A stretch of 51,192 nucleotides of DNA from an uncultured Burkholderiales bacterium (GTDB lineage Bacteria; Actinomycetota; Acidimicrobiia; IMCC26256; JAOSJL01). The position numbers and the translations under genes are program-made. The DNA lies in NCBI GenBank assembly GCA_964424125.1, contig CAYRHS010000001.1, positions 1 to 51,192 on the forward strand. The letters are read 5' to 3'. Under the pieces are notes generated by a model, which saw only the letters and a program-made list of their open reading frames with translations, had not been told where the DNA came from and did no database searches. This document shows positions 6,823 through 27,060 of this stretch, one piece after another. Every line of letters begins with the position of its first letter. The first letter of the stretch is position 1.

Positions 6823-7827
6823 CTACGCCGTTCCGTTGCAGGAGAAGGCGGCCTGTACGCCCCCGTGGTCCGACGCCCAGACGACCCCGTCGACCGGTGG
6901 TTCCACCGGCTCCCCGGCGAAGGGCCCGGTTCGGTCGGGATCGAAGGCGAGCGCGCAGTCGTCGGGCGCACGGGCCAGGACGAAGTCGATGCGCTCGGAG
7001 AACGTCTGTTGCGGATCGTCGAGCCCGTCGAGCGTGCGCCCGGTCCCGGTGCAACACGTGCACCCTTCGCCGGTCGCCGGGTCACACTCCGGATTCCCTG
7101 CCGCGGTCCAGGCGTCGGCGAAGCCTGCATCCAGCAAGGTCGTGATCCGGGGGTGTTCGACCGGCTGGTTCAGGTCGCCGCTGATGATGGCGATCCCGGA
7201 AGGATCCCTTCGCTCGTCGAGGAACTCGAGCAGCTGGCGGGACTGGCAGGTTCCCGTCTCCAGGCCCGGTTCGCACAGCGGCTGGGGGCAGTTCGAGGCA
7301 TCGCAATCGGGATTGTTCGCGCTGCTCGCGAGGTGCGTGGTGACGAAGTCGATCGGGCCCAGGTCGGAGTCGACCCTGACCCACTGGGCACCCCACGGGA
7401 AGTTGGCCAGGTCGACGTATGCCTCGTCCAGCACGGGGAGCCGGGTGAGGACCATCTCCTGGTCGACCGTGTTGGACGGTTCCGCCTCGGGGTTGAACAC
7501 GAGCTCGTAGGCGCCGTCGCACAACGCGGGCAACCGCTCGGGTACCAGTTCCGTCTGGCGGGGCCCGATCTCCTGGAGCCCGACCAGGTCGGGACATCCC
7601 GCGGTCTCGATCGCGTCGAAGAGCAGCTCGAGACGCGCGGGCGCCTCACAGAAGTCGGTCTCCTCGGGACAGATCCGCGGGTCGATGCCGTGGAGCGCGT
7701 TGAGCGTGGCGACCTCGACCGTCGGAGGGGGTACCCCGGTCGTCGCGGCGGAATCCGAGCCGTCGCCACCCGCCGTGCACCCGGCCACGAGTGGCACGAG
7801 CGCGACGAGCAACCACGAGCCCCGCAT
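6823..7827 (-). CDS. endonuclease/exonuclease/phosphatase (EEP) family lipoprotein, Cys-rich
   Basis: Start trimmed to ATG 7827 (MRGSWLLVALVPLVAGC lipobox). EEP-like blocks LNALHG, GLQEI, SGDLN and a terminal SDHGGV. About 14 further cysteines. Confidence 0.7.
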   Translation of the reverse strand: MRGSWLLVALVPLVAGCTAGGDGSDSAATTGVPPPTVEVATLNALHGIDPRICPEETDFCEAPARLELLFDAIETAGCPDLVGLQEIGPRQTELVPERLPALCDGAYELVFNPEAEPSNTVDQEMVLTRLPVLDEAYVDLANFPWGAQWVRVDSDLGPIDFVTTHLASSANNPDCDASNCPQPLCEPGLETGTCQSRQLLEFLDERRDPSGIAIISGDLNQPVEHPRITTLLDAGFADAWTAAGNPECDPATGEGCTCCTGTGRTLDGLDDPQQTFSERIDFVLARAPDDCALAFDPDRTGPFAGEPVEPPVDGVVWASDHGGVQAAFSCNGTA

Positions 7828-7927
7828 CAGCCCACCCCCCCGGGTTTCCCCGGGCCACGCTAGCGGCTCGCCCGCGGCCGGTTCGCCCGGGAATCCCAAG
7901 CGCGCCACACTCGCGACGGAGGGAGCG

Positions 7928-8023
7928 ATGCGCCGGAAACAGCAACAGCTCGTCGCCATCGTCATCATCGCCGGCCTGGTGCTCGCGTTGATCGCCTCCG
8001 CGATCAGCGCCGTGTTCTTCTGA
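7928..8023 (+). CDS. candidate 31-aa single-TM micro-protein
   Basis: GGAGGGA sits 3 nt before the ATG. MRRKQQQ then a 22-residue hydrophobic helix (LVAIVIIAGLVLALIASAISAVFF). Lies in an otherwise unassigned 440-bp gap. Confidence 0.3.
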   Translation: MRRKQQQLVAIVIIAGLVLALIASAISAVFF

Positions 8024-9294: not shown

Positions 9295-11601
9295 ATGAAG
9301 CGAAACCTCAGCCCACGCCGCTTGATCGTCGTCGGTACGCTCGCACTGGCCCTGCCGGTCTTCGCAGGCTGCGCCTCCGACGGATCCTCCGACCAGGCCC
9401 GCGCGGACGTCGTGAAGGTCGAGGGGGCTCAGGCCGAAGCGGCCGACTTCGTCGCGGTCGGTGGCACCCAGCAGGTGACGGTCACCGGCGCCCGGCCGGG
9501 CGTCGAGCTCGAGCTCGCCGACGCCGACGAGACCGTCGTGCAGACCGGCACGACGGACGAGGCGGGCCAGCTCATCTTCCGTCGGGTCGAGCCCGGCGCC
9601 GGCTACTTCGTCGCCGCGGGTGAGGGCGACGCCCTCGTCGTCAGCGAGCCGACCGACGTCGGCGGACTCGACGACGCCCCCGACCCGTCGTTCTACGAAG
9701 GACAGACCATCGACGTCGGCCCGAACGGGACGGGCGCGTTCGGCTACGTCGAGACCCGTGACGGAACGACCCTGGCCATCGACGTCCGCTTGCCCGGACC
9801 GGCGAGCGAGGGCCCCTATCCCACGGTGATCGAGTACTCGGGCTACGACACCGCCAACCCCGACGATCCCGAGCCGGTGACACAGGTCGCGGGCCTGCTC
9901 GGCTACGCCACCGTCGCCGTGAACATGCGCGGGACCGGCTGCTCGGGAGGCTCGTTCCTGTTCTTCGAAGGCGCGCAGGTGACTGACGGCTACGACGTCA
10001 TCGAGGCCGTCGCCGCACAACCCTGGGTCCTCGACCACGAGGTCGGCATGGTCGGCGTGTCGTACTCGGGCCTCGCGCAGCTCTGGGTCGCCCAGACGAA
10101 CCCGCCGAGCCTCGCGTCGATCGCGCCGCTGTCGATGATCGACGACACCTACCGCGCCACCCTCTACCCCGGCGGGATCTTCAACACGGGCTTCGCCAAG
10201 GAATGGGCCGAGGAGCGTCAGAGCGAAGCGGAGCCGGCAGGCCAGGAGTATGCGCAGAAGCGCATCGCCGACGGCGACACGGTCTGCGAGGAGAACCAGG
10301 CGCTGCGCAGCCAGAACCCGGACCTCCTGGAGATGGTCTCCGCCAACCCCTTCTACAACGACGCCGATCTCGGTGATTCGCTCGCCCCGATCACCTTCGT
10401 CGACCAGATCGACGTTCCCGTGTTCCTCGCCGGCGCGTGGCAGGACGAGCAGACCGGGGGCCACTGGCCCGCGATGATCCCCGAGTTCACCGGCAGCGAC
10501 CACGTGTGGGCGACGATGGTCAACGGGACCCACCCCGACCCGCTCGGACCGTCGATCGTCACCCAGTGGGTCGAGTTCAACTCCTTCTACGTGAAGAAGG
10601 AGATCCCCGAGCTGCCCGCGCTCATCCGAACGGTCGGCCCCTCCGTCCTCGGTCCCGAGATCTGGGGGACCGACGACTTCGAGATCCCCGACACCCGCTT
10701 CGCCGGATACGACGACTTCGACCAGGCGCTGGCCGACTTCGAGGCCCAGCAGCCCGTGAAGATCGTCTTCGAGTCGGGCGCGGGTGGGACCACCCCGGGC
10801 GCGCCCGAGGCCACCTTCGAAGCCAGCTTCGACTCCTGGCCCATCCCCGAGACCGATGCCACGGCCTGGTACCTGGGTGCGGACGGTTCCCTAACCGGGT
10901 CGGAACCGACCGACGACGGGGCGGCCGACGAGTACACCTACGACGCCACCGACCACGAGCGCACGACGCTGAACCTCGACGACCGCGAGGACGCATGGGT
11001 CGTCGATCCTCCCTACGACTGGCCCGACCCCGTGGAGGGAACGTCGCTGAACTACGTCGGTGGGGAACTCGACGAGACCGTCGTCATGGCCGGCCACGCG
11101 AGCGCCGACCTGTGGATCTCCTCGCCCGCCGACGACGTCGACCTCGAGGTCACGCTCTCGGAGGTGCGACCCGACGGCAAGGAATACTACGTGACCGCGG
11201 GCTGGCTGCGTGCGTCCCACCGGGCGCTCGACGAGGACGCCTCCACCGAGCTGCGGCCGGTCCAGACGCATCGCGAGGAGGACGCCGAGCCCGTGCCCGA
11301 CGACGAGTTCACCGAAGCACGCGTCGAGCTGTTCCCGTTCGCCCACGTCTTCCGGGCGGGCTCGCGCATCCGGATCACGATCGACGCGCCGGGCGGGACT
11401 CGGCCCCTGTGGAAGTTCGACACGGTCCAGCACTCGGAGCCGGTCCGTGTCGCCCGATCGGCGGATGCACCGTCCCGCGTCGTCCTTCCCGTCATCCCGT
11501 CGCTGGCTGAGGAGGCACCCGCCGCGTACCCGCCGTGCCCGAGCCTGCGCGGTCAGCCCTGCCGCGACTTCGTCGAGGTGCCCAACCGGCCCGCGTCCTG
11601 A
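9295..11601 (+). CDS. CocE/NonD family hydrolase (S15 X-Pro dipeptidyl-peptidase-like), lipoprotein
   Basis: 768 aa. Lipobox LPVFAGC. NMRGTGCSGG block and GVSYSG nucleophile elbow. Large C-terminal beta-domain. AAGGGG sits upstream of the ATG. Confidence 0.8.
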   Translation: MKRNLSPRRLIVVGTLALALPVFAGCASDGSSDQARADVVKVEGAQAEAADFVAVGGTQQVTVTGARPGVELELADADETVVQTGTTDEAGQLIFRRVEPGAGYFVAAGEGDALVVSEPTDVGGLDDAPDPSFYEGQTIDVGPNGTGAFGYVETRDGTTLAIDVRLPGPASEGPYPTVIEYSGYDTANPDDPEPVTQVAGLLGYATVAVNMRGTGCSGGSFLFFEGAQVTDGYDVIEAVAAQPWVLDHEVGMVGVSYSGLAQLWVAQTNPPSLASIAPLSMIDDTYRATLYPGGIFNTGFAKEWAEERQSEAEPAGQEYAQKRIADGDTVCEENQALRSQNPDLLEMVSANPFYNDADLGDSLAPITFVDQIDVPVFLAGAWQDEQTGGHWPAMIPEFTGSDHVWATMVNGTHPDPLGPSIVTQWVEFNSFYVKKEIPELPALIRTVGPSVLGPEIWGTDDFEIPDTRFAGYDDFDQALADFEAQQPVKIVFESGAGGTTPGAPEATFEASFDSWPIPETDATAWYLGADGSLTGSEPTDDGAADEYTYDATDHERTTLNLDDREDAWVVDPPYDWPDPVEGTSLNYVGGELDETVVMAGHASADLWISSPADDVDLEVTLSEVRPDGKEYYVTAGWLRASHRALDEDASTELRPVQTHREEDAEPVPDDEFTEARVELFPFAHVFRAGSRIRITIDAPGGTRPLWKFDTVQHSEPVRVARSADAPSRVVLPVIPSLAEEAPAAYPPCPSLRGQPCRDFVEVPNRPAS

Positions 11602-12018: not shown

Positions 12019-12489
12019 CTACGCGCCCGGCCTGCTCACCCAGCCGACGATCCCGCTCAGCATCGAGACGATCGCGATCCCCGTCAGGCCGTGGATGACG
12101 GCGAGCGCGATCTCCGACGACTGCTCCAGCGAGAGGGTGAACGGGTAGAGGAGCGACGCCGCGATCACCACCAGCGCGCCCCACTGGAAGAAGAGCAGGG
12201 GCCGCGGCGCGTAGAGCAGGAGCAGGTGTAGTAGCCCGGTCGCGACGAGCCCCGCGACGAGCGCGACCAAGAACGCCGGGCCCCCGTCGAGCATCCGGTA
12301 GGTGTCGGCACCCGGAGAGGTGGGCACGAACACGTCGACGTCGAACACGCCCTTCGCCCCGAACAGGCTCACCAGCGCCACGCCGCCGGCGATCAACGAC
12401 GTCGCCACACCTCCGCCCCAGAGCCGTCCGGCGTTCACCACCGGCTTCTCCGAATCGGGTCCCTGCGGGTACCGGGCAGGTGAAGTCAT
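12019..12489 (-). CDS. integral membrane protein, function unknown
   Basis: 156 aa with four clear hydrophobic helices and host-like codon usage. Confidence 0.55.
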   Translation of the reverse strand: MTSPARYPQGPDSEKPVVNAGRLWGGGVATSLIAGGVALVSLFGAKGVFDVDVFVPTSPGADTYRMLDGGPAFLVALVAGLVATGLLHLLLLYAPRPLLFFQWGALVVIAASLLYPFTLSLEQSSEIALAVIHGLTGIAIVSMLSGIVGWVSRPGA

Positions 12490-12576
12490 GAGCGCTCCCC
12501 TCGCGACTGGCGCGGGACCCTAGCGCCACTGCACGGCTCGACCTCCGACCTCCGCCCGGAGGAACAGGGGTGCGAG

Positions 12577-12948
12577 CTACTCGGGTCGGTGACAGACGGC
12601 CTCGACGTTGTTGCCGTCGGGATCGCGAACGAAAGCGCCGTAGTAACCAGGGTGGTATTCGGGCCACTCGCGCGGCTCGTGGAGCACCTCGGCGCCCGTA
12701 CCGACCGCGGCGTCGAAGAACGCGCGCACCGAGGCTCGGTCGTTCGCGATGAACGCGAGGTGCAACTCCCGGTTGCCCTCGACTTCAGGGATCACCGGCC
12801 CGAGCCAGAAGTCCGGCTTGTCGATGCCGTATCCGATGAACTGCTCGAAATCCATGATCCGCTTCGCGCCAAGGGTCGCGAGGACGGCGTCGTAGAACCG
12901 AGCCGCGGCGGACACGTCCGCGCACTGGATCCCGACATGGTCGAGCAT
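12577..12948 (-). CDS. VOC (glyoxalase/bleomycin-resistance/dioxygenase) family protein
   Basis: 123 aa. MLDHVGIQCAD start, HLAF, and GAFVRDPDGNNVEAV C-terminal block typical of the fold. Confidence 0.85.
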   Translation of the reverse strand: MLDHVGIQCADVSAAARFYDAVLATLGAKRIMDFEQFIGYGIDKPDFWLGPVIPEVEGNRELHLAFIANDRASVRAFFDAAVGTGAEVLHEPREWPEYHPGYYGAFVRDPDGNNVEAVCHRPE

Positions 12949-13072
12949 GCCGCAGATCGTATCCAGCCGTCGGCGCTCCAGGGCTCGAACCCGGGATCTG
13001 AGGACTTGGACATCGCGTCACGGTCGGATCAGACTCCGTCGCGGCACAGGAACCGAGGACGAGAGGTAGCGC

Positions 13073-13483
13073 GTGAGCGAGACGAGGGAAGACATGCTCG
13101 CAAGGGTCGACTTCTTCTCCGACCTCTCGAAGAAGGAGCTGAAGCGGATCGCCCAGCTGTTGACCCCGGTCAACGTGGACGCGGGCTACGTCCTGACCCG
13201 CGAAGGCGCGCTCGGCGAGGAGTTCTTCGTGATCTTCGACGGTGAGGCAACGGTCACACAGGACGGGCGAACCGTCGCCACGTTGAAGGCCGGGGACTTC
13301 TTCGGCGAGCTCGCGCTGCTCACCAACATGAAGCGGAAGGCAACCGTGACGGCGACCACCGCGATGAGCCTCGGGGTACTCACGTGGTCCGAGTTCGACG
13401 CGATGCTCGACGACGCGCCCGAGGTCATGCGCAAGCTGCTACATGACGTCGCCTCGATCCTCGCCGAACACCTCGACTACTGA
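13073..13483 (+). CDS. stand-alone cyclic-nucleotide-binding domain protein
   Basis: 136 aa. FFGELALL...RKATVTA phosphate-binding cassette. No output domain. Confidence 0.8.
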   Translation: MSETREDMLARVDFFSDLSKKELKRIAQLLTPVNVDAGYVLTREGALGEEFFVIFDGEATVTQDGRTVATLKAGDFFGELALLTNMKRKATVTATTAMSLGVLTWSEFDAMLDDAPEVMRKLLHDVASILAEHLDY

Positions 13484-13534
13484 ACGGGGCCTGGGGGCGG
13501 GACCGCGCGAGACCGTTCCCGCAGGTCGGGCTCG

Positions 13535-13576
13535 TGGGCGCTACAGGGCTCGAACCTGTGACCTCCGCCTTGTAAG
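13535..13576 (-). repeat. orphan 3' half of a tRNA-Val(UAC) gene (anticodon loop to discriminator); att-like direct repeat of 17228-17269
   Basis: 40/42 identity to the intact gene. The two differences are compensatory within the T-stem (ACAGG/CCUGU versus GCAGG/CCUGC). No 5' half or acceptor partner lies upstream. Confidence 0.8.
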
Positions 13577-13977
13577 TCCGACACGGTCCAGGGTGCCGGG
13601 TACACCCGGGGTGGGTCGCAGTGCTGGTGACCAGCACCTTCGCGCTTCCGGTCATCCCTCGTCGGCGCCCCGCAGACGCTCGGGTCTGAGCCCGTGTGTT
13701 TACAGCGGGTTTACTGCGGGTGACGGCGGGCCGGTCGCATAGCGTCACAACGTGGTGCTCGATCGAGCAAGCCGCGAACCGCAGCGACTACGAGGAGATT
13801 CGCGACGAGGCAAGCAAGGCTCGACAGAGCTACGCAGCGACGCTCGCCTCATCGTCGGAGTTCAGACGGCGAAAGCTGGACCTCGATGATCGACTCCGAA
13901 AATGCAATCGCGCGTGGTGCGATGACCAAGGCGTTCATGTGTACGACGTCGAGCGCGATGGTGAACAGGGAGCCCGC

Positions 13978-14256
13978 CTAGAGCGCGGCGAGCACCACTC
14001 CCGCTGCGATGAGGACAAGCGAGAGCCACTCCCATCCCATTCTGCTGCCGACGAGCCGTCGGACGTCCGCCCGAGCGTCCTCGACCGCCTCGCGCATGAG
14101 ATCGTCGGCGTGCTTGCGCGCGGCGGCGACCCGATCGTTGCGCTCTCTCTCGTGGCGCCCCACCTCGGTTGAGAGCGCGTTCAGGCTCTTCTCAAGATCA
14201 CGCACCCACTCGACCAACCACGCGATCTGGCCCTCGGTCGTCAGCTCCTCAGGCAT
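13978..14256 (-). CDS. hypothetical 92-aa coiled-coil protein with C-terminal TM anchor
   Basis: MPEELTTEGQIAWLVEWVRDLEKSL... ends in WEWLSLVLIAAGVVLAAL. Weak SD. Lies in the lower-GC patch of the island. Confidence 0.35.
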   Translation of the reverse strand: MPEELTTEGQIAWLVEWVRDLEKSLNALSTEVGRHERERNDRVAAARKHADDLMREAVEDARADVRRLVGSRMGWEWLSLVLIAAGVVLAAL

Positions 14257-14600
14257 GGGGCGCCGACTTGTCGTCCCACGAACCGACAGGGCGCTCTCGG
14301 CGCCGAGGGCCGCTCCGGTCTGGACGGTCTGCGCGGTCGGGGGGCGGTGAAGAGCCCAACGACCGAAGCGCCGGGCGCCGCGCCTGGCCAGCGGGGAGCG
14401 CGAACCGAAGCGGTGATCTGTAGCGTCCGTCATGAGCGGCGATGACAGCGAAGCGTCGAGCAACTTCGCCGGCCTGCCGCTCTGCGGTGGACCTAAGTGG
14501 ACGGCTTTCAAACCCTTGAGATTGGCCCGACTGATGGAAAGCGCGGGTCGCGTCGGGGAATCAGGGGGGTGACGATCGCGAAGTCGGGATCGACCGGCGC

Positions 14601-14957
14601 GAGGAGGTCGTCCAAGCGGACCAGCACAGACGCGTCGCCGCCGACGCTCGCGCAGATCCCGATCCCGCCGAGGGGTGGTCGCGACGTTCGGTGTTGGCGA
14701 ACAGCCGGGCGGAGACGCTCGTGCCGTTCATCGGGCGTCGGAACCTCGCCGGGTACCCGGCGGCGTCCGCGCCCGCGGGCCTCCACCCGTCGGGGCTCGC
14801 GCTCTCGGTGCAGCTCGTCGCTCCCAAGGGCGGCGAGGTTCTGATCCTGTCCCTCGCGGAGCGGCTCGAGACGCTGCGCGCCCCTGGCCCCGCCATGCTC
14901 CTCGTTCCTGAGTGGCGTACCTCCCGCCCGCTGAGCGGGCATGCGGTACGCCTCTAG
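14601..14957 (+). pseudogene. C-terminal fragment of an amidase-signature enzyme
   Basis: Translation LVPFIGRRNLAGYPAASAPAGLHPSGLALSVQLVAPKGGEVLILSLAERLE parallels WCVPFNLTGVPAVSVPAGFIDGLPVGLQVVARRCDDARALAAAAALE of the adjacent intact amidase. No N-terminal or GGSSGG part is present. Confidence 0.5.
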
Positions 14958-14973
14958 TCGGAGCGGGGAGAAG

Positions 14974-16425
14974 TCACACTGGCGAGTGACGGGGCCAGGG
15001 GCGGACGCGCTCCAGCGCGGCGGCCGCGGCCAGGGCGCGGGCGTCGTCGCAGCGGCGGGCGACAACCTGGAGGCCGACGGGCAGGCCGTCGATGAAGCCC
15101 GCGGGCACGCTCACGGCGGGGACACCGGTGAGGTTGAACGGGACGCACCACAGGGACGCGGCCCCGGGCCCGAGCTCGCGCCCGTCGACCTCCATCGGGA
15201 GGGGGCCCGCGGCGCCGAACGGGGGTACCGGCGACGTCGGTGCGAGGAGGAGGTCGACCCGTTCGAAGACGTTGGCCAGCGCCTCGCGCACGGCGTAGCG
15301 CGTCTGGTTCGAGGCGACGACCGCCGCGAGGCTCGGCGTCGCCATCTGGCCGGCGAGGATCTCGATCAGGGGCCGGGCACCGGGGGTGCGCTCGAGCAGG
15401 TTCGAAAACATCTCGACCTGGGCCGCCTGCATCGCCGGGTCGGGGTCGGCGTCCGCGATGAACAGCCCGGCGCCGTTGTCCTCCACCGGTGGCAGCGACA
15501 GGGTCGTCTCGACCTCGTCGAGGCCCGCGGCGCCGATCAGCGCGTCGGCCGCCTCCCGACAGATCGCAGCCACCTCGGGCTCGGTGTTGGTGAGGCCGTT
15601 GTCGGTGAGGAAAGCGACGCGCGTGCCCGCGAGGTCGAGCTCGTCGATCGCCTGCTCGAACGAGACGCCCGGCGCGGGCAGCGAGTAGGGATCGCGGTCG
15701 TCGGGCCCGACGACGCAATCCAGGTACCGGCCCGCGTCGCGCACGGTGGAGGCCAGAGGTCCCTTGTGGGTGAGGTTGGCGGCCGTGAGGTAGGCAGGCC
15801 CCCGGGGGACGAGGCCGTAGGTGCCCTTCACGCCGACGACGCCGCAGTACGACGCCGGCAACCGGATGGAGCCGCCCATGTCGCCGCCGGTGGCGATCGG
15901 CGCCATCGCGGCGGCGATCGCGGCCGCGGAGCCCCCGCTCGAGCCGCCCGGCGTGCGCTCGGGATCCCACGGGTTGCGCGTGATCCCGTGCAACGCCGAG
16001 GCTGTGAAGTTGAGCAGTCCCATCTCGGGCGAGGCCGTCAACCCGAACGGCACCGCACCTGCGGCAAGCAGGCGACGGAGCAGCGTGAGCGTCGTGGTGG
16101 CGACGTTGTCGGCTAACGCCGTGCTGGCGTGGGTGTCGGGCCAGCCCTCGACCGCGTCGAGCTCCTTCACCGCGAGCGGGACACCGGCGAGCGGTCCCGG
16201 GTCGTCCCCCGCGGCCACGCGTTCGTCGACGGCGCGCGCCCAGCCGTGCGCGCGTTCGGGGTCGAGGAAGACGAAGGCGTTCAGCGGCTCGTTGACGGCC
16301 TCGACCCGTGCGAGGAAGGCATCGAGGACGTCGACGGCTGTGACGCGTCCGGCGTGGATGTCACCCGCGAGGTCGATCGCGGTGCGCTCGTGCAGCTCCG
16401 ATGGCGGGGCGGTGGGCGTGGCCAC
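14974..16425 (-). CDS. amidase (amidase-signature family)
   Basis: 483 aa. GGSSGGSAAAIAA...GGDMGGSIRLPASYCGVVGVKGTYG signature. Confidence 0.9.
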   Translation of the reverse strand: MATPTAPPSELHERTAIDLAGDIHAGRVTAVDVLDAFLARVEAVNEPLNAFVFLDPERAHGWARAVDERVAAGDDPGPLAGVPLAVKELDAVEGWPDTHASTALADNVATTTLTLLRRLLAAGAVPFGLTASPEMGLLNFTASALHGITRNPWDPERTPGGSSGGSAAAIAAAMAPIATGGDMGGSIRLPASYCGVVGVKGTYGLVPRGPAYLTAANLTHKGPLASTVRDAGRYLDCVVGPDDRDPYSLPAPGVSFEQAIDELDLAGTRVAFLTDNGLTNTEPEVAAICREAADALIGAAGLDEVETTLSLPPVEDNGAGLFIADADPDPAMQAAQVEMFSNLLERTPGARPLIEILAGQMATPSLAAVVASNQTRYAVREALANVFERVDLLLAPTSPVPPFGAAGPLPMEVDGRELGPGAASLWCVPFNLTGVPAVSVPAGFIDGLPVGLQVVARRCDDARALAAAAALERVRPWPRHSPV

Positions 16426-16445
16426 GCTGGATCCCTCCGGTCGGG

Positions 16446-16613
16446 TCAGGTCGGTTCCAGGACGCGTTCGGCCCGAGTCCCGTTGTCGCGGCCGTCGCGG
16501 ATCACGACCGAGCCGTTGGCGACCACGTGCGCGATCGCGACCGGCGATGCTAGTGAGTCCTCGTAGGTGGCGCCGTCGGCGACGCGGTCGGGGTCGCGAG
16601 CAACGTCAAGTGC
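16446..16613 (-). pseudogene. C-terminal 55-codon fragment of a D-aminoacylase-type amidohydrolase
   Basis: ALDVARDPDRVADGATYEDSLASPVAIAHVVANGSVVIRDGRDNGTRAERVL matches the usual ADxVVFDPxxVxDxATFEDPxxxxxGIxxVxVNGxxVxxxGxxTGxxPGRVL tail. Upstream sequence is unrelated. Confidence 0.5.
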
Positions 16614-17227
16614 ATGCTCGCATTCGCGGTGCCCGGGGTGAGAATCGAACTCCGACCGACCCCGTGTCAACGCGTACCGTCCAGTCCACGAATCGGCGTG
16701 AAACCAGCCGATTCGCAGGCTCGCCCACGGTCGTCGTGCCGGCTCGTGACGCCCCGTACCAAGAAGTCTGTGACCATTCCGTGACCACGGGGTCAGGTTC
16801 CGACGTGCCCGGACAGCAGTCGAAACAACGATGGGACTCGAAACCCACGACCCCCTGCTTGCAAAGCTCCCTTGGGGATGTCCTGGACCGACGACCTCGC
16901 CGTGGCGCGCCGGTTCGCGCAGCGTGCGGCCGTGCAGGGTCCCGCGTACGTCCGCTCGGCGACCGTGCCTCCCGAAACCGTCCTCGCCCGGTTCGCGACC
17001 AGCGCCGAGACCGAGGCGGTCGTGAATCCTGACGGCTTGCGGGGTCGAGTCGAGGTCGTCGAAGAGGTGGAGGCCGAGGCGGATCGGCTTCCGTGTTTCG
17101 CTCCCCGGAGGGCAAGACGCACCGGTGAAGCCCGACACCGGCCCTCGCGTCTACTGCTCGTGTACAAACCGCCGCCCCGACCCCGGCGCGCACGAACGCA
17201 CGAGACCGAAAGCGCAGGTCAGACCGG

Positions 17228-17300
17228 TGGGCGCTGCAGGGCTCGAACCTGCGACCTCCGCCTTGTAAGAGCGGCGCTCTTCCCGCTGAGCTAAGCGCCC
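17228..17300 (-). tRNA. tRNA-Val (anticodon UAC)
   Basis: 73-nt cloverleaf folded by hand. Acceptor GGGCGCU/AGCGCCC, D arm GCUC-AGCGGGAA-GAGC, anticodon arm CCGCU-CUUACAA-GGCGG, variable AGGUC, T arm GCAGG-UUCGAGC-CCUGC, discriminator A. CCA is not fully encoded. Confidence 0.95.
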
Positions 17301-17505
17301 GAGACCGCCTCGACGGTACCGGAGATGCTCAGCGGCTCGCGCGGCGTGGTGGGCGGATCTCCCCGAGAAGCTCGCGCAGGAGGTCTCGCGCGCGGCGGTG
17401 CTCGGAGGGCCCTCCCGGCCCGAGGCTCGACGCGCCGCGCCGTCGAGATCCTCGAGCGCCCGGCGGATGTCGCCGACCGGGACCTCGAACTCCGCCTCGA
17501 GACGC

Positions 17506-17913
17506 TCGTACGACCGGAAGACGTGGGACCGCCTGCGGGCCAGCGAGCTCGGGAGCGCGGAGATCGTGGTCGGCAGGGTGCTCCCGTTCCTGGTCTTCGG
17601 CGCGATCCAGATGCTCACCTTGTTCACCGCGGGAACGCTGTTGCTCGACCTCGATCTGCGTGGCCAGCTCCTCCCGGTCACCAGTCTCGGCGCCGCGCTG
17701 GTGGTCTGTGTCGTCTGCTAGGGCGTCGCGCTCGTCTCGGTGACGCGTTCGCTACCCGAGCTCACGGCGATCGGGAGCTTAGGGGCGATCGTGATGGGAA
17801 CGTGGAGCGGCGCGTTCGTTCCCATCGGCCGCTGCTGGGGTTTCGCTGCGGCGTTCCTGGCGGTCGCGCGGGCACGCTTTCGGATCGACGAGCCCGAGCG
17901 GGCGCGCGGGTGA
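17506..17913 (+). pseudogene. ABC-2 type transporter permease remnant (N-terminally truncated, in-frame TAG at 17719)
   Basis: YDRKTWDRLRASELGSAEIVVGRVLPFLVFGAIQMLTLF... resembles the ERExGTxERLxxSP...IvxGKvLP core. The same frame continues after the TAG (GVALVSVTRSLPELTAIGSLGAIVMGTWSGAFVPIG...ARARFRID). The first ~100 residues and an internal block are missing. Confidence 0.5.
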
Positions 17914-17922
17914 GCGGTATCG

Positions 17923-18333
17923 TCAGCCGCGGGTACGGGGGATGCCGGCCTTCTTCAGCACCTCGGGCGGGACACCCGCATCGCGCCAGGCCCCGTAGCT
18001 GAGGTCCTTGGACTCCCCGTACTCTTTGGCGACCTTCACGAAGTCGCGTTCCAGGGCGCTGATGTCCACGGTCTCGCTCTTCTCGTCGAGCCGGGCCTGG
18101 AGGTCCCGGATCCGCTGTGCGGTGAGGACCCGGTCGGCGCCCGTCGCGCCGGCGAGCTCCGCTTCGGCTTTGTGCAACCGCCGCTCGAGCTCCGCCTTCG
18201 AGACCTTCCGGCCCCGACGCTTGGGCTTGTTCACGGCCTCGAGATAGCGATCCACGACGGCTTTCCGGCGCCGGCCCTCTTTCATGGCTTTCTTGTGCGC
18301 GGGCGTGACCTTGGTGCCTTTGGGGCGCGGCAT
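17923..18333 (-). CDS. basic Lys/Arg-rich hypothetical protein
   Basis: Start trimmed to ATG 18333 (AAGGGAAGAG upstream). MPRPKGTKVTPAHKKAMKEGRRRK..KRRGRK then a helical acidic half. No recognisable domain. Confidence 0.55.
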   Translation of the reverse strand: MPRPKGTKVTPAHKKAMKEGRRRKAVVDRYLEAVNKPKRRGRKVSKAELERRLHKAEAELAGATGADRVLTAQRIRDLQARLDEKSETVDISALERDFVKVAKEYGESKDLSYGAWRDAGVPPEVLKKAGIPRTRG

Positions 18334-18559
18334 CTCTTCCCTTTTTCGTCCGTGGATCGAAGCGTGAAGAGCGTAGGCCGGATGAAATTCGGGAGGCAAT
18401 TGGCCGCGCCACTACGACACAAAGGCGCAGGTTGCTTCACAGGTTCACGACCGACGATTCGACCGCCGGCGGGCCGGGGCTCGTGGGGGCCGACGGGGGG
18501 AACGACCCCGTCCGTCACCCCGGCCCGCCGTGTGGCGGTGACCTCTGGCCGCTCGCCCC

Positions 18560-18892
18560 TCAGGCGGAGCGAGCAGCCGCGATCGGGTCCTCGGGCTCCG
18601 GGGGCGCCACCTTGGGCGGGCGTCCCCGACGTCGCTTGTGGGCCAGCACCTTGCCGTTGGCGAAGAGCTCACCGCCCCAGACGCCCACGGGCTCGCGCCG
18701 CTCCTGCGCGGCCGCGAGGCACTGCTGGCGCACCGGGCACTCCTGGCAGAAGGCCTTGGCGGCCGCGATGTCCTGGAGCTCCTCGGAGAAGAACAGCGCT
18801 GTGAGCGAGCCGTCGCCGTCGCGGCAACGGGCGCGGGCCTGCCACGTCTCCCGGTACTGCTCCGAGGTGGTGAGGGTCTCGATGGCTGCCAT
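18560..18892 (-). CDS. whiB7: WhiB-family Fe-S transcription factor with C-terminal AT-hook (WhiB7/WblC type)
   Basis: 110 aa from ATG 18892. C-x25-C-x2-C-x5-C, GVWGG turn, KRRRGRPPK AT-hook. Leader uORF and terminator upstream. Confidence 0.85.
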   Translation of the reverse strand: MAAIETLTTSEQYRETWQARARCRDGDGSLTALFFSEELQDIAAAKAFCQECPVRQQCLAAAQERREPVGVWGGELFANGKVLAHKRRRGRPPKVAPPEPEDPIAAARSA

Positions 18893-19019: not shown

Positions 19020-19181
19020 CTAGGAGCTGTCCTGGAGCCGCCGGGGCCGACCGGGCTTGTGGTCGGTGCCCACGAGGATGGTGGCGTTCGACCACGGAGC
19101 CGGCGTGTGGAAGACGAAGCTGCGGACGCGCGCGACGCCGGCCGGGCCATACATCGGTGCCATGGCGTGCCGGTCGGTCAT
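19020..19181 (-). CDS. candidate 53-codon leader peptide (uORF) of the whiB7-like gene
   Basis: AGAGGA sits 6 nt before ATG 19181. The stop is at 19020-19022. Its last codons contain CCCCGGCGGC (19046-19037), identical to the terminator 3' arm. Confidence 0.4.
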   Translation of the reverse strand: MTDRHAMAPMYGPAGVARVRSFVFHTPAPWSNATILVGTDHKPGRPRRLQDSS

Positions 19182-19350
19182 CGTCGGTCCTCTACAACCT
19201 GTCTTCCGCTGGACTCCGGGCCGTGCGGGATCACCCCGGGCGACTCGGGTTACAACGATGCAATCATGCCCGGCCTTCCCGGTCAAACAGATTAGTGCCC
19301 CGCCGGCCGGGAGCCCCGCTCGGGGGGCGGTCCCGTACGCTGATGCCGTC

Positions 19351-25698: not shown

Positions 25699-27060
25699 TC
25701 AATCCGGAAGCAGGACCCCCGGGTTGAGGATCCCGGCCGGGTCGAGCGCGTCCTTCACCGCCCGGAACACCGCGAGCTCCTCGGCCGAACGGTTCTCGGG
25801 GAGCAGCTCCCGTTTGGCGATGCCGATGCCGTGTTCGGCCGAGATGCTTCCCCCCATGGCGGCCGCCAGCTCGAGCACGCTCTCGTCGACGCGGTCGTCG
25901 TGCGCGGCGGGACCGACCACGTTCACGTGGAGGTTCCCGTCGCCGAGATGCCCGAAGAGCACACAGCGCGCCTCCGGCACGATTTCTGCGACGACCGCGC
26001 GGACCTGCTGTTCGAAGTCGACCAGCATCGAAGCCGGGAGCGTGACGTCGAGCTTGTGGGGGATGCCGAGCGTCGCGATCGCCTCGGTGTGCAGGTCGCG
26101 CAGCCGCCAGAGCCGATCACGCCCTGCCGGCTCCGTGGCGACGGCACTCGCGGTCACGACGTCGGTGAGCCCGGACAGCGCGTCGGTGAGCTCCTCGGAA
26201 GGGTCACGGGGCCCGGCAGCCTCCGCGAGCACGAGCACCGCGGGAAGCGGGTCGAACGGGGTCGGGACCTCGAAGGTCTCGGCGACGAGGCGCACACCGT
26301 CGGCAAACATCACCTCGAGCGCTTCCAGCGACGGCGTCGTCCGGTGGAGACGAGCGGCGACGTCGACCGCGGCCGCAAAGGAGTCGCATCCCAGCAGCGC
26401 GGTGACGCGGTGCCTCGGGCGGGGAATCAAGCGGAGCCGTACCGCGGTCACGACCGCGAGCGTCCCTTCGCTCCCCGTGAGCAGCCCGGGGAGGTCGTAC
26501 CCGGTGTTGTCCTTCGTCAGCCCCCGCAGGGACCGCACGACCCGCCCGTCCGCGAGCACTGCCTCCACCCCGACGACCTGGTGGCGCATCGGTCCGTACC
26601 GGATGACGTGCATGCCACCGGCGTTGGTCGCCACCATCCCGCCGATCGTCGCCGAGTCACGTGCCGAGAGGTCGACACCCACATCGAGACCATGTGGGCG
26701 CACGTGCTCGCGCACCGCGGCGAGCGTCGCACCCGCCCCGACGGTCACCTGGTCGGCCGCGGTGTCGACGGGGCCGACCTCGTCGAGCTCGCGCAGGCTC
26801 AGGAGGACCTCGCCGGCTCGGGGCACCGAGCCGCCGACCAACCCCGTGTTCCCTCCCTGGGGAACGACGGACACGCGGCGCTCCGAGCACCACCGCAGCG
26901 TCGCCGCGACCTCGTCGGGCGAACGCGGCCGGACGACGGCCGGCGTCGTCCCCTCGTAGCGACCCGTCCAGTCGACGACATACGAACGCGTCACCTCCGG
27001 ATCGACGAGCACTCGGCCCGCACCGAGCGCTCTGGTGAGCCCTGCAGCGATCTCGGTCAT
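25699..27060 (-). CDS. FAD-binding oxidase/dehydrogenase (GlcD / FAD_binding_4 type)
   Basis: Trimmed to ATG 27060. VVPQGGNTGLVGGSVP FAD-binding block. C-terminal SISAEHGIGIAKR. Confidence 0.85.
   Translation of the reverse strand: MTEIAAGLTRALGAGRVLVDPEVTRSYVVDWTGRYEGTTPAVVRPRSPDEVAATLRWCSERRVSVVPQGGNTGLVGGSVPRAGEVLLSLRELDEVGPVDTAADQVTVGAGATLAAVREHVRPHGLDVGVDLSARDSATIGGMVATNAGGMHVIRYGPMRHQVVGVEAVLADGRVVRSLRGLTKDNTGYDLPGLLTGSEGTLAVVTAVRLRLIPRPRHRVTALLGCDSFAAAVDVAARLHRTTPSLEALEVMFADGVRLVAETFEVPTPFDPLPAVLVLAEAAGPRDPSEELTDALSGLTDVVTASAVATEPAGRDRLWRLRDLHTEAIATLGIPHKLDVTLPASMLVDFEQQVRAVVAEIVPEARCVLFGHLGDGNLHVNVVGPAAHDDRVDESVLELAAAMGGSISAEHGIGIAKRELLPENRSAEELAVFRAVKDALDPAGILNPGVLLPD

Follow-up and report, generated by a model that had tools for sequence, protein, structure and literature searches.

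How does a genome come to hold an intact tRNA gene and, 3.65 kb away in the same orientation, a second copy of its 3' half? The question is raised by tRNA-Val(UAC) in a 51,192-nucleotide (nt) stretch of DNA from an uncultured Acidimicrobiia lineage, referred to here as the window; it comprises the first 51,192 bases of the 76.7-kb contig C1 of a fragmented metagenome-assembled genome (MAG; 263 contigs, 3.12 Mb, GC content 70.6%, completeness 82%). A first-pass annotation, made from the sequence alone, had interpreted the gene and its partial copy as the two attachment (att) ends, attL and attR, of an element integrated into the tRNA 3' end, and the surroundings as a repeatedly used, now decayed hotspot. 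The comparisons presented here make it most probable that this whiB7-linked tRNA-Val(UAC) served on several occasions as a hotspot of site-specific integration, which has since decayed. Read from right to left along the window, the locus starts with the tRNA gene (17226-17300) and continues with a 3.65-kb interval that would form the youngest layer of insertion (13577-17225), the orphan tRNA half that bounds it, two older and smaller layers, and the conserved chromosome, which is reached at the open reading frame (ORF) ORF156 (12019-12489), outside the outermost tRNA fragment.

The intact gene, which takes the role of attL, lies on the minus strand at 17226-17300 (ARAGORN; Rfam tRNA, 70.4 bits) and is the sole tRNA that ARAGORN calls in the window. 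The same-orientation 42-nt copy described in the first-pass annotation was recovered by a repeat search and proved to be part of a longer direct repeat: 13490-13576 and 17183-17269, both on the minus strand, align without gaps over 87 nt at 80% identity, from the anticodon loop through the tRNA 3' end and about 45 nt of flank. The tRNA part of the orphan copy (13535-13576, here termed F1) is identical to 17228-17269 at 40 of 42 positions, from the anticodon loop to the discriminator, and a degenerate form of this 42-mer matches the window twice, with no match in 100 dinucleotide-preserving shuffles. Similarity past the tRNA 3' end had likewise been noticed, and CGCAGGTC is indeed common to positions 13520 and 17213. 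At the other end the boundary is sharp: identity begins at C32, the first base of the anticodon loop (CTTACAA), and the sequences 5' of C32 are unrelated. F1 and its flank would constitute the attR-like end of the youngest layer.

Both differing positions of the tRNA part belong to a single T-stem pair, G-C in the intact gene and A-T in the orphan, so that the two changes compensate each other, as had been proposed. F1 is identical at all 42 positions to the tRNA-Val 3' half of three sister-genus genomes (G001-G003, the sole family-level relatives among species representatives), all of which carry the A-T allele. The G-C allele of the intact gene is native in three other Acidimicrobiia loci (L125, L130 and L136) and also occurs in the orphan halves of a further genome, G008, described below. 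Because the sister genus matches F1 throughout and the intact gene differs, the orphan, judged by these alleles, appears to preserve the state of the tRNA prior to an exchange of its 3' half. Such a pattern, with the old half in the orphan and the new half in the gene, is just what integration into a tRNA 3' half would be expected to give. A search of the genome for other tRNA-Val(UAC) alleles had been suggested; the 3.1-Mb assembly has one Val(tac) gene, that at 17226-17300. The flanks also have counterparts in the sister genus: F1 together with its flank aligns to G002 (64 nt, 91%) and G003 (77 nt, 86%), and the flank of the copy at the intact tRNA is 83% identical to that of G003.

Two more decayed tRNA-Val fragments lie beyond the orphan, on the same strand as tRNA-Val and both in intergenic spacers, which supports the earlier view of a site used repeatedly. 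Fragment F2 (12969-12999, minus strand), between the glyoxalase and cyclic nucleotide monophosphate (cNMP)-binding genes, retains the T-arm and acceptor (26 of 31 positions identical), and its T-stem still pairs by way of another compensating change. Fragment F3 (12529-12556, minus strand), between the glyoxalase gene and ORF156, covers tRNA positions 38-67 (26/29 identical, one gap) and would be the oldest. Each has a local alignment score of 21, a value reached by 0 of 300 shuffles; a scan of the whole 3.1-Mb genome recovers both, and nearly all matches scoring at least 18 are true tRNAs. The three stacked orphans grow more decayed with distance from the tRNA. One gene is left in each of the two outer layers: a glyoxalase/VOC-family gene between F3 and F2 (12577-12948, minus strand; PF18029 and PF00903; GC about 0.65), and a cNMP-binding-domain gene between F2 and F1 (13073-13483, plus strand; PF00027, E 7e-17; GC 0.63-0.65). 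GC across 12.6-14.1 kb is 0.63-0.65, compared with 0.706 for the genome. The gene order held in common with G001 resumes at ORF156, directly adjoining F3. Since older layers exist, F1 may not be the original chromosomal half, but rather the one that the tRNA used until the last insertion. An integron-like cassette array was considered for this series and rejected: there is no integrase, the separators are tRNA-Val fragments and not attC sites, and the glyoxalase and cNMP-binding genes lie on opposite strands.

The same site can be followed in other genomes. The three sister-genus genomes and the window share the order CocE-type hydrolase (window 9295-11601), ORF106, variable stretch, tRNA-Val(UAC), WhiB-type regulator, gap and serine hydrolase; an ORF156 homologue is also retained in G001. 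On the 3' side of the tRNA, the genes differ from one of the three to the next and look ordinary; they are unrelated to those of the window and include no integrase. Tandem full-length tRNA-Val genes, which the first-pass annotation had named as the sign of a simple duplication, are seen in none of the three. Protein search identified MAGs from Acidimicrobiia or Actinomycetota as relatives, and the WhiB7-type protein retrieved 27 loci from Acidimicrobiia MAGs (L124-L150). In 23 of these, tRNA-Val(tac) lies a few hundred bases downstream of the WhiB7-type gene; T-stem alleles across the set vary by lineage and are always base-paired. Three loci (L134, L131 and L126) carry an intact tyrosine integrase gene that begins 90-250 nt past the whiB7-linked tRNA-Val, the spacers between tRNA and integrase having no homology to the attL flank of the window, and a fourth (L137) has a second tRNA-Val 3' fragment 1.3 kb away.

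The closest match to the architecture of the window is found in G008 (contig C25; loci L017 and L018), in which three orphan halves follow the whiB7-linked tRNA on its 3' side, at distances of 8.3, 18.6 and 19.5 kb (C25 positions 25880-25938, 15642-15689 and 14717-14764, respectively, within C25:14717-34285). The intervening stretch of 18.5 kb, a large island with mercury-resistance genes as far as its translations can be read by eye, encodes MerA, ArsR-like proteins, a duplicated ribbon-helix-helix (RHH)/GNAT toxin-antitoxin pair and an IS110-like fragment. ARAGORN labels one of the three orphans a 69-nt tRNA-Val. Since integrases and orphan halves occur at the whiB7-linked tRNA-Val of other MAGs, the hotspot extends across the class and has living occupants. 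The attL/attR geometry proposed at the outset is accordingly supported by the anticodon-loop boundary, the alleles, an integrase-associated remnant in the interval, the variable 3' genes of relatives and the occupied sites elsewhere.

That remnant is the one recognisable mobile-element gene between the repeats. It lies at 16872-17075 on the plus strand, separated from the tRNA by the roughly 150-nt flank at 17076-17225, and comprises the 68-codon C-terminal tail of a mobile-element-associated protein whose first ~170 residues are gone. The tail matches the PHROG family phrog_4776, which is of unknown function, at E 3e-6 over profile positions 173-228 of 237. Its full-length homologues within the taxonomic order sit beside Pfam-confirmed tyrosine integrases: that of G250 (207 amino acids (aa)) directly upstream of a 395-aa tyrosine integrase, and that of G028 (249 aa) within an element whose limits are an integrase and tRNA-Val(CAC). 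The label of ADP-ribosyltransferase-like tail previously given to this fragment was discarded, as phrog_4776 is its sole match and neither the tail nor the full-length homologues have Pfam support for it. The absence of an integrase from the interval was confirmed: PF00589 has no match anywhere on contig C1, and tblastn with two related integrases found nothing in the window. Replication genes of actinomycete integrative and conjugative elements (AICEs) and FtsK/SpoIIIE-type transfer genes are likewise missing among the ORFs of the interval in Pfam and PHROG scans, and a tblastn comparison with 50,697 phage records gave no match for the tail or for the 93-aa ORF described below. Excision is unlikely without an integrase, and the locus is at present immobile.

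The 'tRNA-like debris' of the first-pass annotation could be resolved into fragments of two other tRNAs. One is a tRNA-Ala(UGC) fragment on the minus strand at 16828-16867, only 5 nt from the phrog_4776-like tail, which covers tRNA positions 30-68 with 39 of 40 positions identical (blastn-short E 9e-13). The other forms one end of a 170-nt repeat on the minus strand (16619-16789): positions 16624-16650 match tRNA-Leu(CAA) from the T-loop to the 3' end and for 4 nt further into its flank (26/27 identical). The 170-nt repeat has four copies: that in the window, two on contig C43 of the same assembly (15536-15702 and 19154-19318; locus L029; 74-76% identity to the window copy) and one in G003 (C2:628787-628957, or 9788-9958 of L117; 70%). 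All copies start GGTCAC N10 GGTCAC and share a hairpin with compensating changes, and that of G003 marks one end of a stretch of lower GC that contains a terminase-like ORF. On C43, 3.6 kb separate the two copies, which are in direct orientation and enclose a large ORF of regulator-like type and a small one resembling DUF4242 (names assigned by eye from the translations); an Rfam search of these copies gave nothing significant. The repeat looks like the distal arm plus core, of attR type, of an element family targeting tRNA-Leu. On another, doubtful reading, the embedded Ala and Leu fragments would be more than passive debris: the repeat would act as a small integrative module of non-autonomous type, or as a structured RNA, and by moving or recombining among the att sites of elements specific for different tRNAs would produce mosaic islands through integrase cross-talk; were that the case, the tRNA-Val locus would record the shuffling of att sites among elements with different tRNA targets. 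Ala and Leu att-type fragments within a Val island could also stem from recombination between resident elements or from the capture of old attR ends.

Further integration scars are present at other tRNA genes of the same assembly. A C-terminal integrase remnant (C7:28246-28341) lies 1.5 kb from tRNA-Val(GAC), and a partial integrase (C30:22655-23116) adjoins tRNA-Lys(UUU). The ends of C33 and C111 fall exactly at tRNA-Ala(UGC), and on C171 an 11-nt duplicate, GGGCACCGCGA, is found 17 nt past the native tRNA-Leu(CAA).

Most of the remaining interval is a 2-kb operon segment cut inside genes at both ends, with the middle amidase alone intact. This 483-aa amidase-signature enzyme, already recognised as the one intact amidase, is encoded on the minus strand at 14974-16425 (Pfam E 3e-97). 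The two truncated neighbours previously described were verified by comparison with contig C24 of the same assembly: the C-terminal end of another amidase, amidase B (14639-14957, plus strand, with the Pfam-recognised amidase tail at 14691-14957; about 80% DNA identity to C24:8042-8303), and the last 50 codons of a D-aminoacylase (16446-16598, minus strand; 68% aa identity to C24), homology to C24 ending at 16596. The whole segment is a copy of C24:6013-8303 with 80-81% DNA identity, without the ORF107 of C24. When 5.8 billion proteins are compared, the intact amidase is closest to the C24 copy (84%), the next reaching 75%, and the D-aminoacylase-amidase pair is a conserved operon, intact both on C24 and in L151. 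Between the intact amidase and its C24 copy the synonymous divergence (dS) is 0.59 and the ratio of nonsynonymous to synonymous divergence (dN/dS) 0.15; for the tails, dN/dS is 0.29 (amidase B, 91 codons) and 0.26 (D-aminoacylase), which indicates that the tails belonged to functional genes throughout most of this divergence, truncation being comparatively recent. On C24, a Cys-rich ORF of 107 aa (7669-7992) lies between two convergent amidases; it is missing in the C1 copy, where the corresponding spacer (window 14901-14981) measures 80 nt.

The lower-GC patch noted in the first-pass annotation was reproduced (13650-14100; GC 0.63-0.64, compared with 0.706 for the genome). It holds an orphan small ORF (13978-14259, minus strand) that encodes 93 aa with a hydrophobic C-terminus (GC at third codon positions 0.82-0.86). 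This ORF has no Pfam, PHROG or phage match and no homologue among 5.8e9 proteins, and the ~400 nt of lower-GC DNA that accompany it are similarly without homologues. Just inside the orphan half, at window 13605-13640, two short palindromes occur, GGTGCCGGGTACACCCGGGGTGG and GTGCTGGTGACCAGCAC, which might function as a terminator or bind a protein at the end proximal to attR. Across 12.4-18.6 kb, Rfam found nothing significant except the tRNA.

The 5' side of the tRNA has also been rearranged. The truncated ABC-2 permease reported just past the tRNA is present as an N-terminally truncated pseudogene (17398-17913, plus strand) with an in-frame TAG at 17719-17721; read through this TAG, the remnant matches PF01061 with 38 bits over profile positions 69-186 of 211. 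It is followed by ORF158 (17923-18399, minus strand), a conserved single-copy gene for a basic protein with no Pfam match that is present in 36 of 41 related genomes, and then by the WhiB7-type regulator gene (18560-18892, minus strand), whose place next to tRNA-Val(UAC), on its 5' side, is conserved across Acidimicrobiia. The distance from tRNA to whiB7 is ~200 bp in most relatives. Among the loci inspected, ORF158 stands between tRNA-Val and whiB7 in the window only and occupies unrelated loci in relatives; its position beside the ABC-2 pseudogene suggests that the tRNA's 5' side underwent a second rearrangement. The idea that the ABC-2 remnant and ORF158 form a native block was dropped, as the neighbours of ORF158 in five relatives include no ABC-2 gene. 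Kinship was also considered between the ABC-2 remnant of the window and an ABC-2 fragment beside an orphan half in G008; no homology was found, so that the latter's placement beside an orphan is a coincidence.

From the repeats, alleles, fragments, paralogy, synteny and occupied sites in relatives observed here, we infer an integrase-mediated origin, an order of events and the later loss of the integrases. Each incoming element was probably a prophage or integrative element with a tyrosine integrase, which would have recombined in the anticodon-loop region of tRNA-Val. The element would have brought a new 3' half, such that the tRNA stayed functional, and the former 3' half with a short downstream flank would have been displaced outward as an orphan. 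Integrases and nearly all backbone genes may then have been lost by deletion and illegitimate recombination, a process that would have reduced the two old layers to one gene each (glyoxalase and cNMP-binding) and left the youngest as a mosaic of an integrase-associated gene tail, Ala and Leu att-type fragments, an orphan ORF and a piece of a same-lineage operon.

Several observations weigh against this account. The 76.7-kb contig is devoid of integrase, excisionase, replication and transfer genes, so that integration is inferred and not seen. An exact-pattern scan of metagenome and genome collections for the orphan plus flank found neither an empty site nor a same-genus genome; similarly, an exact look-up of the cNMP-binding protein gave no match, and a search for related loci with this protein yielded metagenome homologues of at most 50% identity, of no use for synteny. 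The flank is homologous in both copies, G002 and G003, and both copies could therefore derive from chromosomal tRNA-Val loci and not from attP: the ~45 nt of flank similarity indicate either that attP carries a captured piece from downstream of tRNA-Val, or that the segments come from chromosomal loci of relatives. The central 2 kb resemble the C24 operon of the same genome most and are not typical foreign cargo. Finally, the tRNA-Ala and tRNA-Leu fragments are unexplained by simple integration at tRNA-Val, and the rearrangement on the 5' side (ABC-2 remnant, relocated ORF158) is not predicted by integration at the 3' end.

Three other histories were weighed against the same evidence. Pieces of the tRNA-Val locus could have been imported from related Acidimicrobiia without an integrase, by transformation or conjugation, with homologous recombination in the tRNA and illegitimate joining at the other end leaving duplicated 3' segments with their native flanks. 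Such an import would account for the 35-45 nt of flank that both copies share with the chromosomal tRNA-Val flank of G002 and G003, for the host-lineage character of the 2-kb amidase segment (84% to C24, compared with 75% for the next match), both ends of which fall within genes, and for the late truncation suggested by a tail dN/dS of 0.26-0.29. However, homologous recombination within the tRNA would replace the 3' half and not duplicate it, the repeat boundary falls exactly at the anticodon loop, and three stacked same-strand fragments, together with integrases at the site in relatives, suit site-specific events better; we consider this route unlikely. An origin by local tandem duplication of the tRNA-Val region, with the distal copies losing their 5' halves and diverging, is less probable still. 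It fits direct, same-strand repeats whose similarity runs into the flank, but the shared part is 87 nt and not a full unit, its 5' boundary lies precisely at the anticodon loop, and no tandem Val genes exist in the three family relatives. Moreover, the tRNA part differs by one compensating pair and the flank by 33%, which places both copies under tRNA-like constraint, and remnants of mobile elements lie in the interval together with pieces of other tRNAs.

The arrangement might also be an artefact of assembly or binning, with different population variants joined into a chimera at short repeats and the mosaic present in no single cell, as the MAG consists of 263 contigs at 82% completeness and other contigs break at tRNA-Ala (C33 and C111) or soon after tRNA-Leu (C171). 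Against this, the repeats measure 27-87 nt and are diverged, and are thus too short or too different for k-mer collapse by an assembler; the fragments form an orderly same-strand series in intergenic spacers, and G008 and L137 display the same architecture in independent assemblies. Of the explanations considered, an artefact is thus the least credible, and a very remote one.

The preferred reading, repeated site-specific integration followed by decay, places the locus among systems that are already known. The actinobacterial elements pSAM2, SLP1 and mycobacteriophage L5 use tyrosine integrases that target the tRNA segment from the anticodon loop to the 3' end; reportedly, the sublocation classes of Williams (2002) likewise place the canonical crossover positions of tyrosine integrases in the anticodon loop or the T-loop. 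As in pSAM2, SLP1 and L5, the repeat in the window runs from the anticodon loop through and past the tRNA 3' end, and the tRNA is regenerated by element-borne sequence; unlike them, the window is without integrase, excisionase, replication and transfer genes, such that the footprint alone matches. Tandem accretion at tRNA hotspots is said to occur at the Klebsiella tRNA-Asn hotspots and in tandems made up of phages together with integrative and conjugative elements (phage-ICE tandems). The window resembles these in its reuse of the same tRNA, its series of direct repeats and its successive layers; by contrast, its layers have shrunk to single genes of ~0.4-0.5 kb each, and, unlike simple accretion, it embeds fragments of two other tRNAs (Ala and Leu).

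That tRNA gene fragments are footprints of integrated elements is well documented (PMC9897764), an example being the PYG1 island of Pyrococcus yayanosii, which has a partial tRNA-Gln on one side and a complete one on the other, with repeats of 44 bp (PMC9897764). As in islands of the PYG1 type, a complete tRNA and a same-strand, non-gene 3' copy (~42 nt) bracket foreign or variable DNA; the window differs in its size of 3.65 kb, in having no integrase or backbone but a dead remnant, and in its three stacked orphans in place of one. The locus is therefore a new, degraded instance of a well-known genomic scar in an uncultured Acidimicrobiia lineage, and not a new system; the debris of several tRNAs and the 170-nt repeat are mildly unusual.

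For the annotation of this genome, the finding means that the ~4.7 kb between ORF156 and tRNA-Val (12.5-17.2 kb) are accreted and decayed DNA, foreign or rearranged, and that the fragments found there should consequently not be annotated as genes. The current understanding of integration is unchanged by the locus, whose value lies mainly in annotation and history: its stacked orphans, with T-stem alleles that differ and yet always pair, illustrate how element-borne tRNA halves replace host halves. More broadly, the junction of whiB7 and tRNA-Val(UAC) is a recurrent insertion site across uncultured Acidimicrobiia, useful for finding the largely unknown prophages and integrative elements of these bacteria and a candidate landing site for genetic tools.

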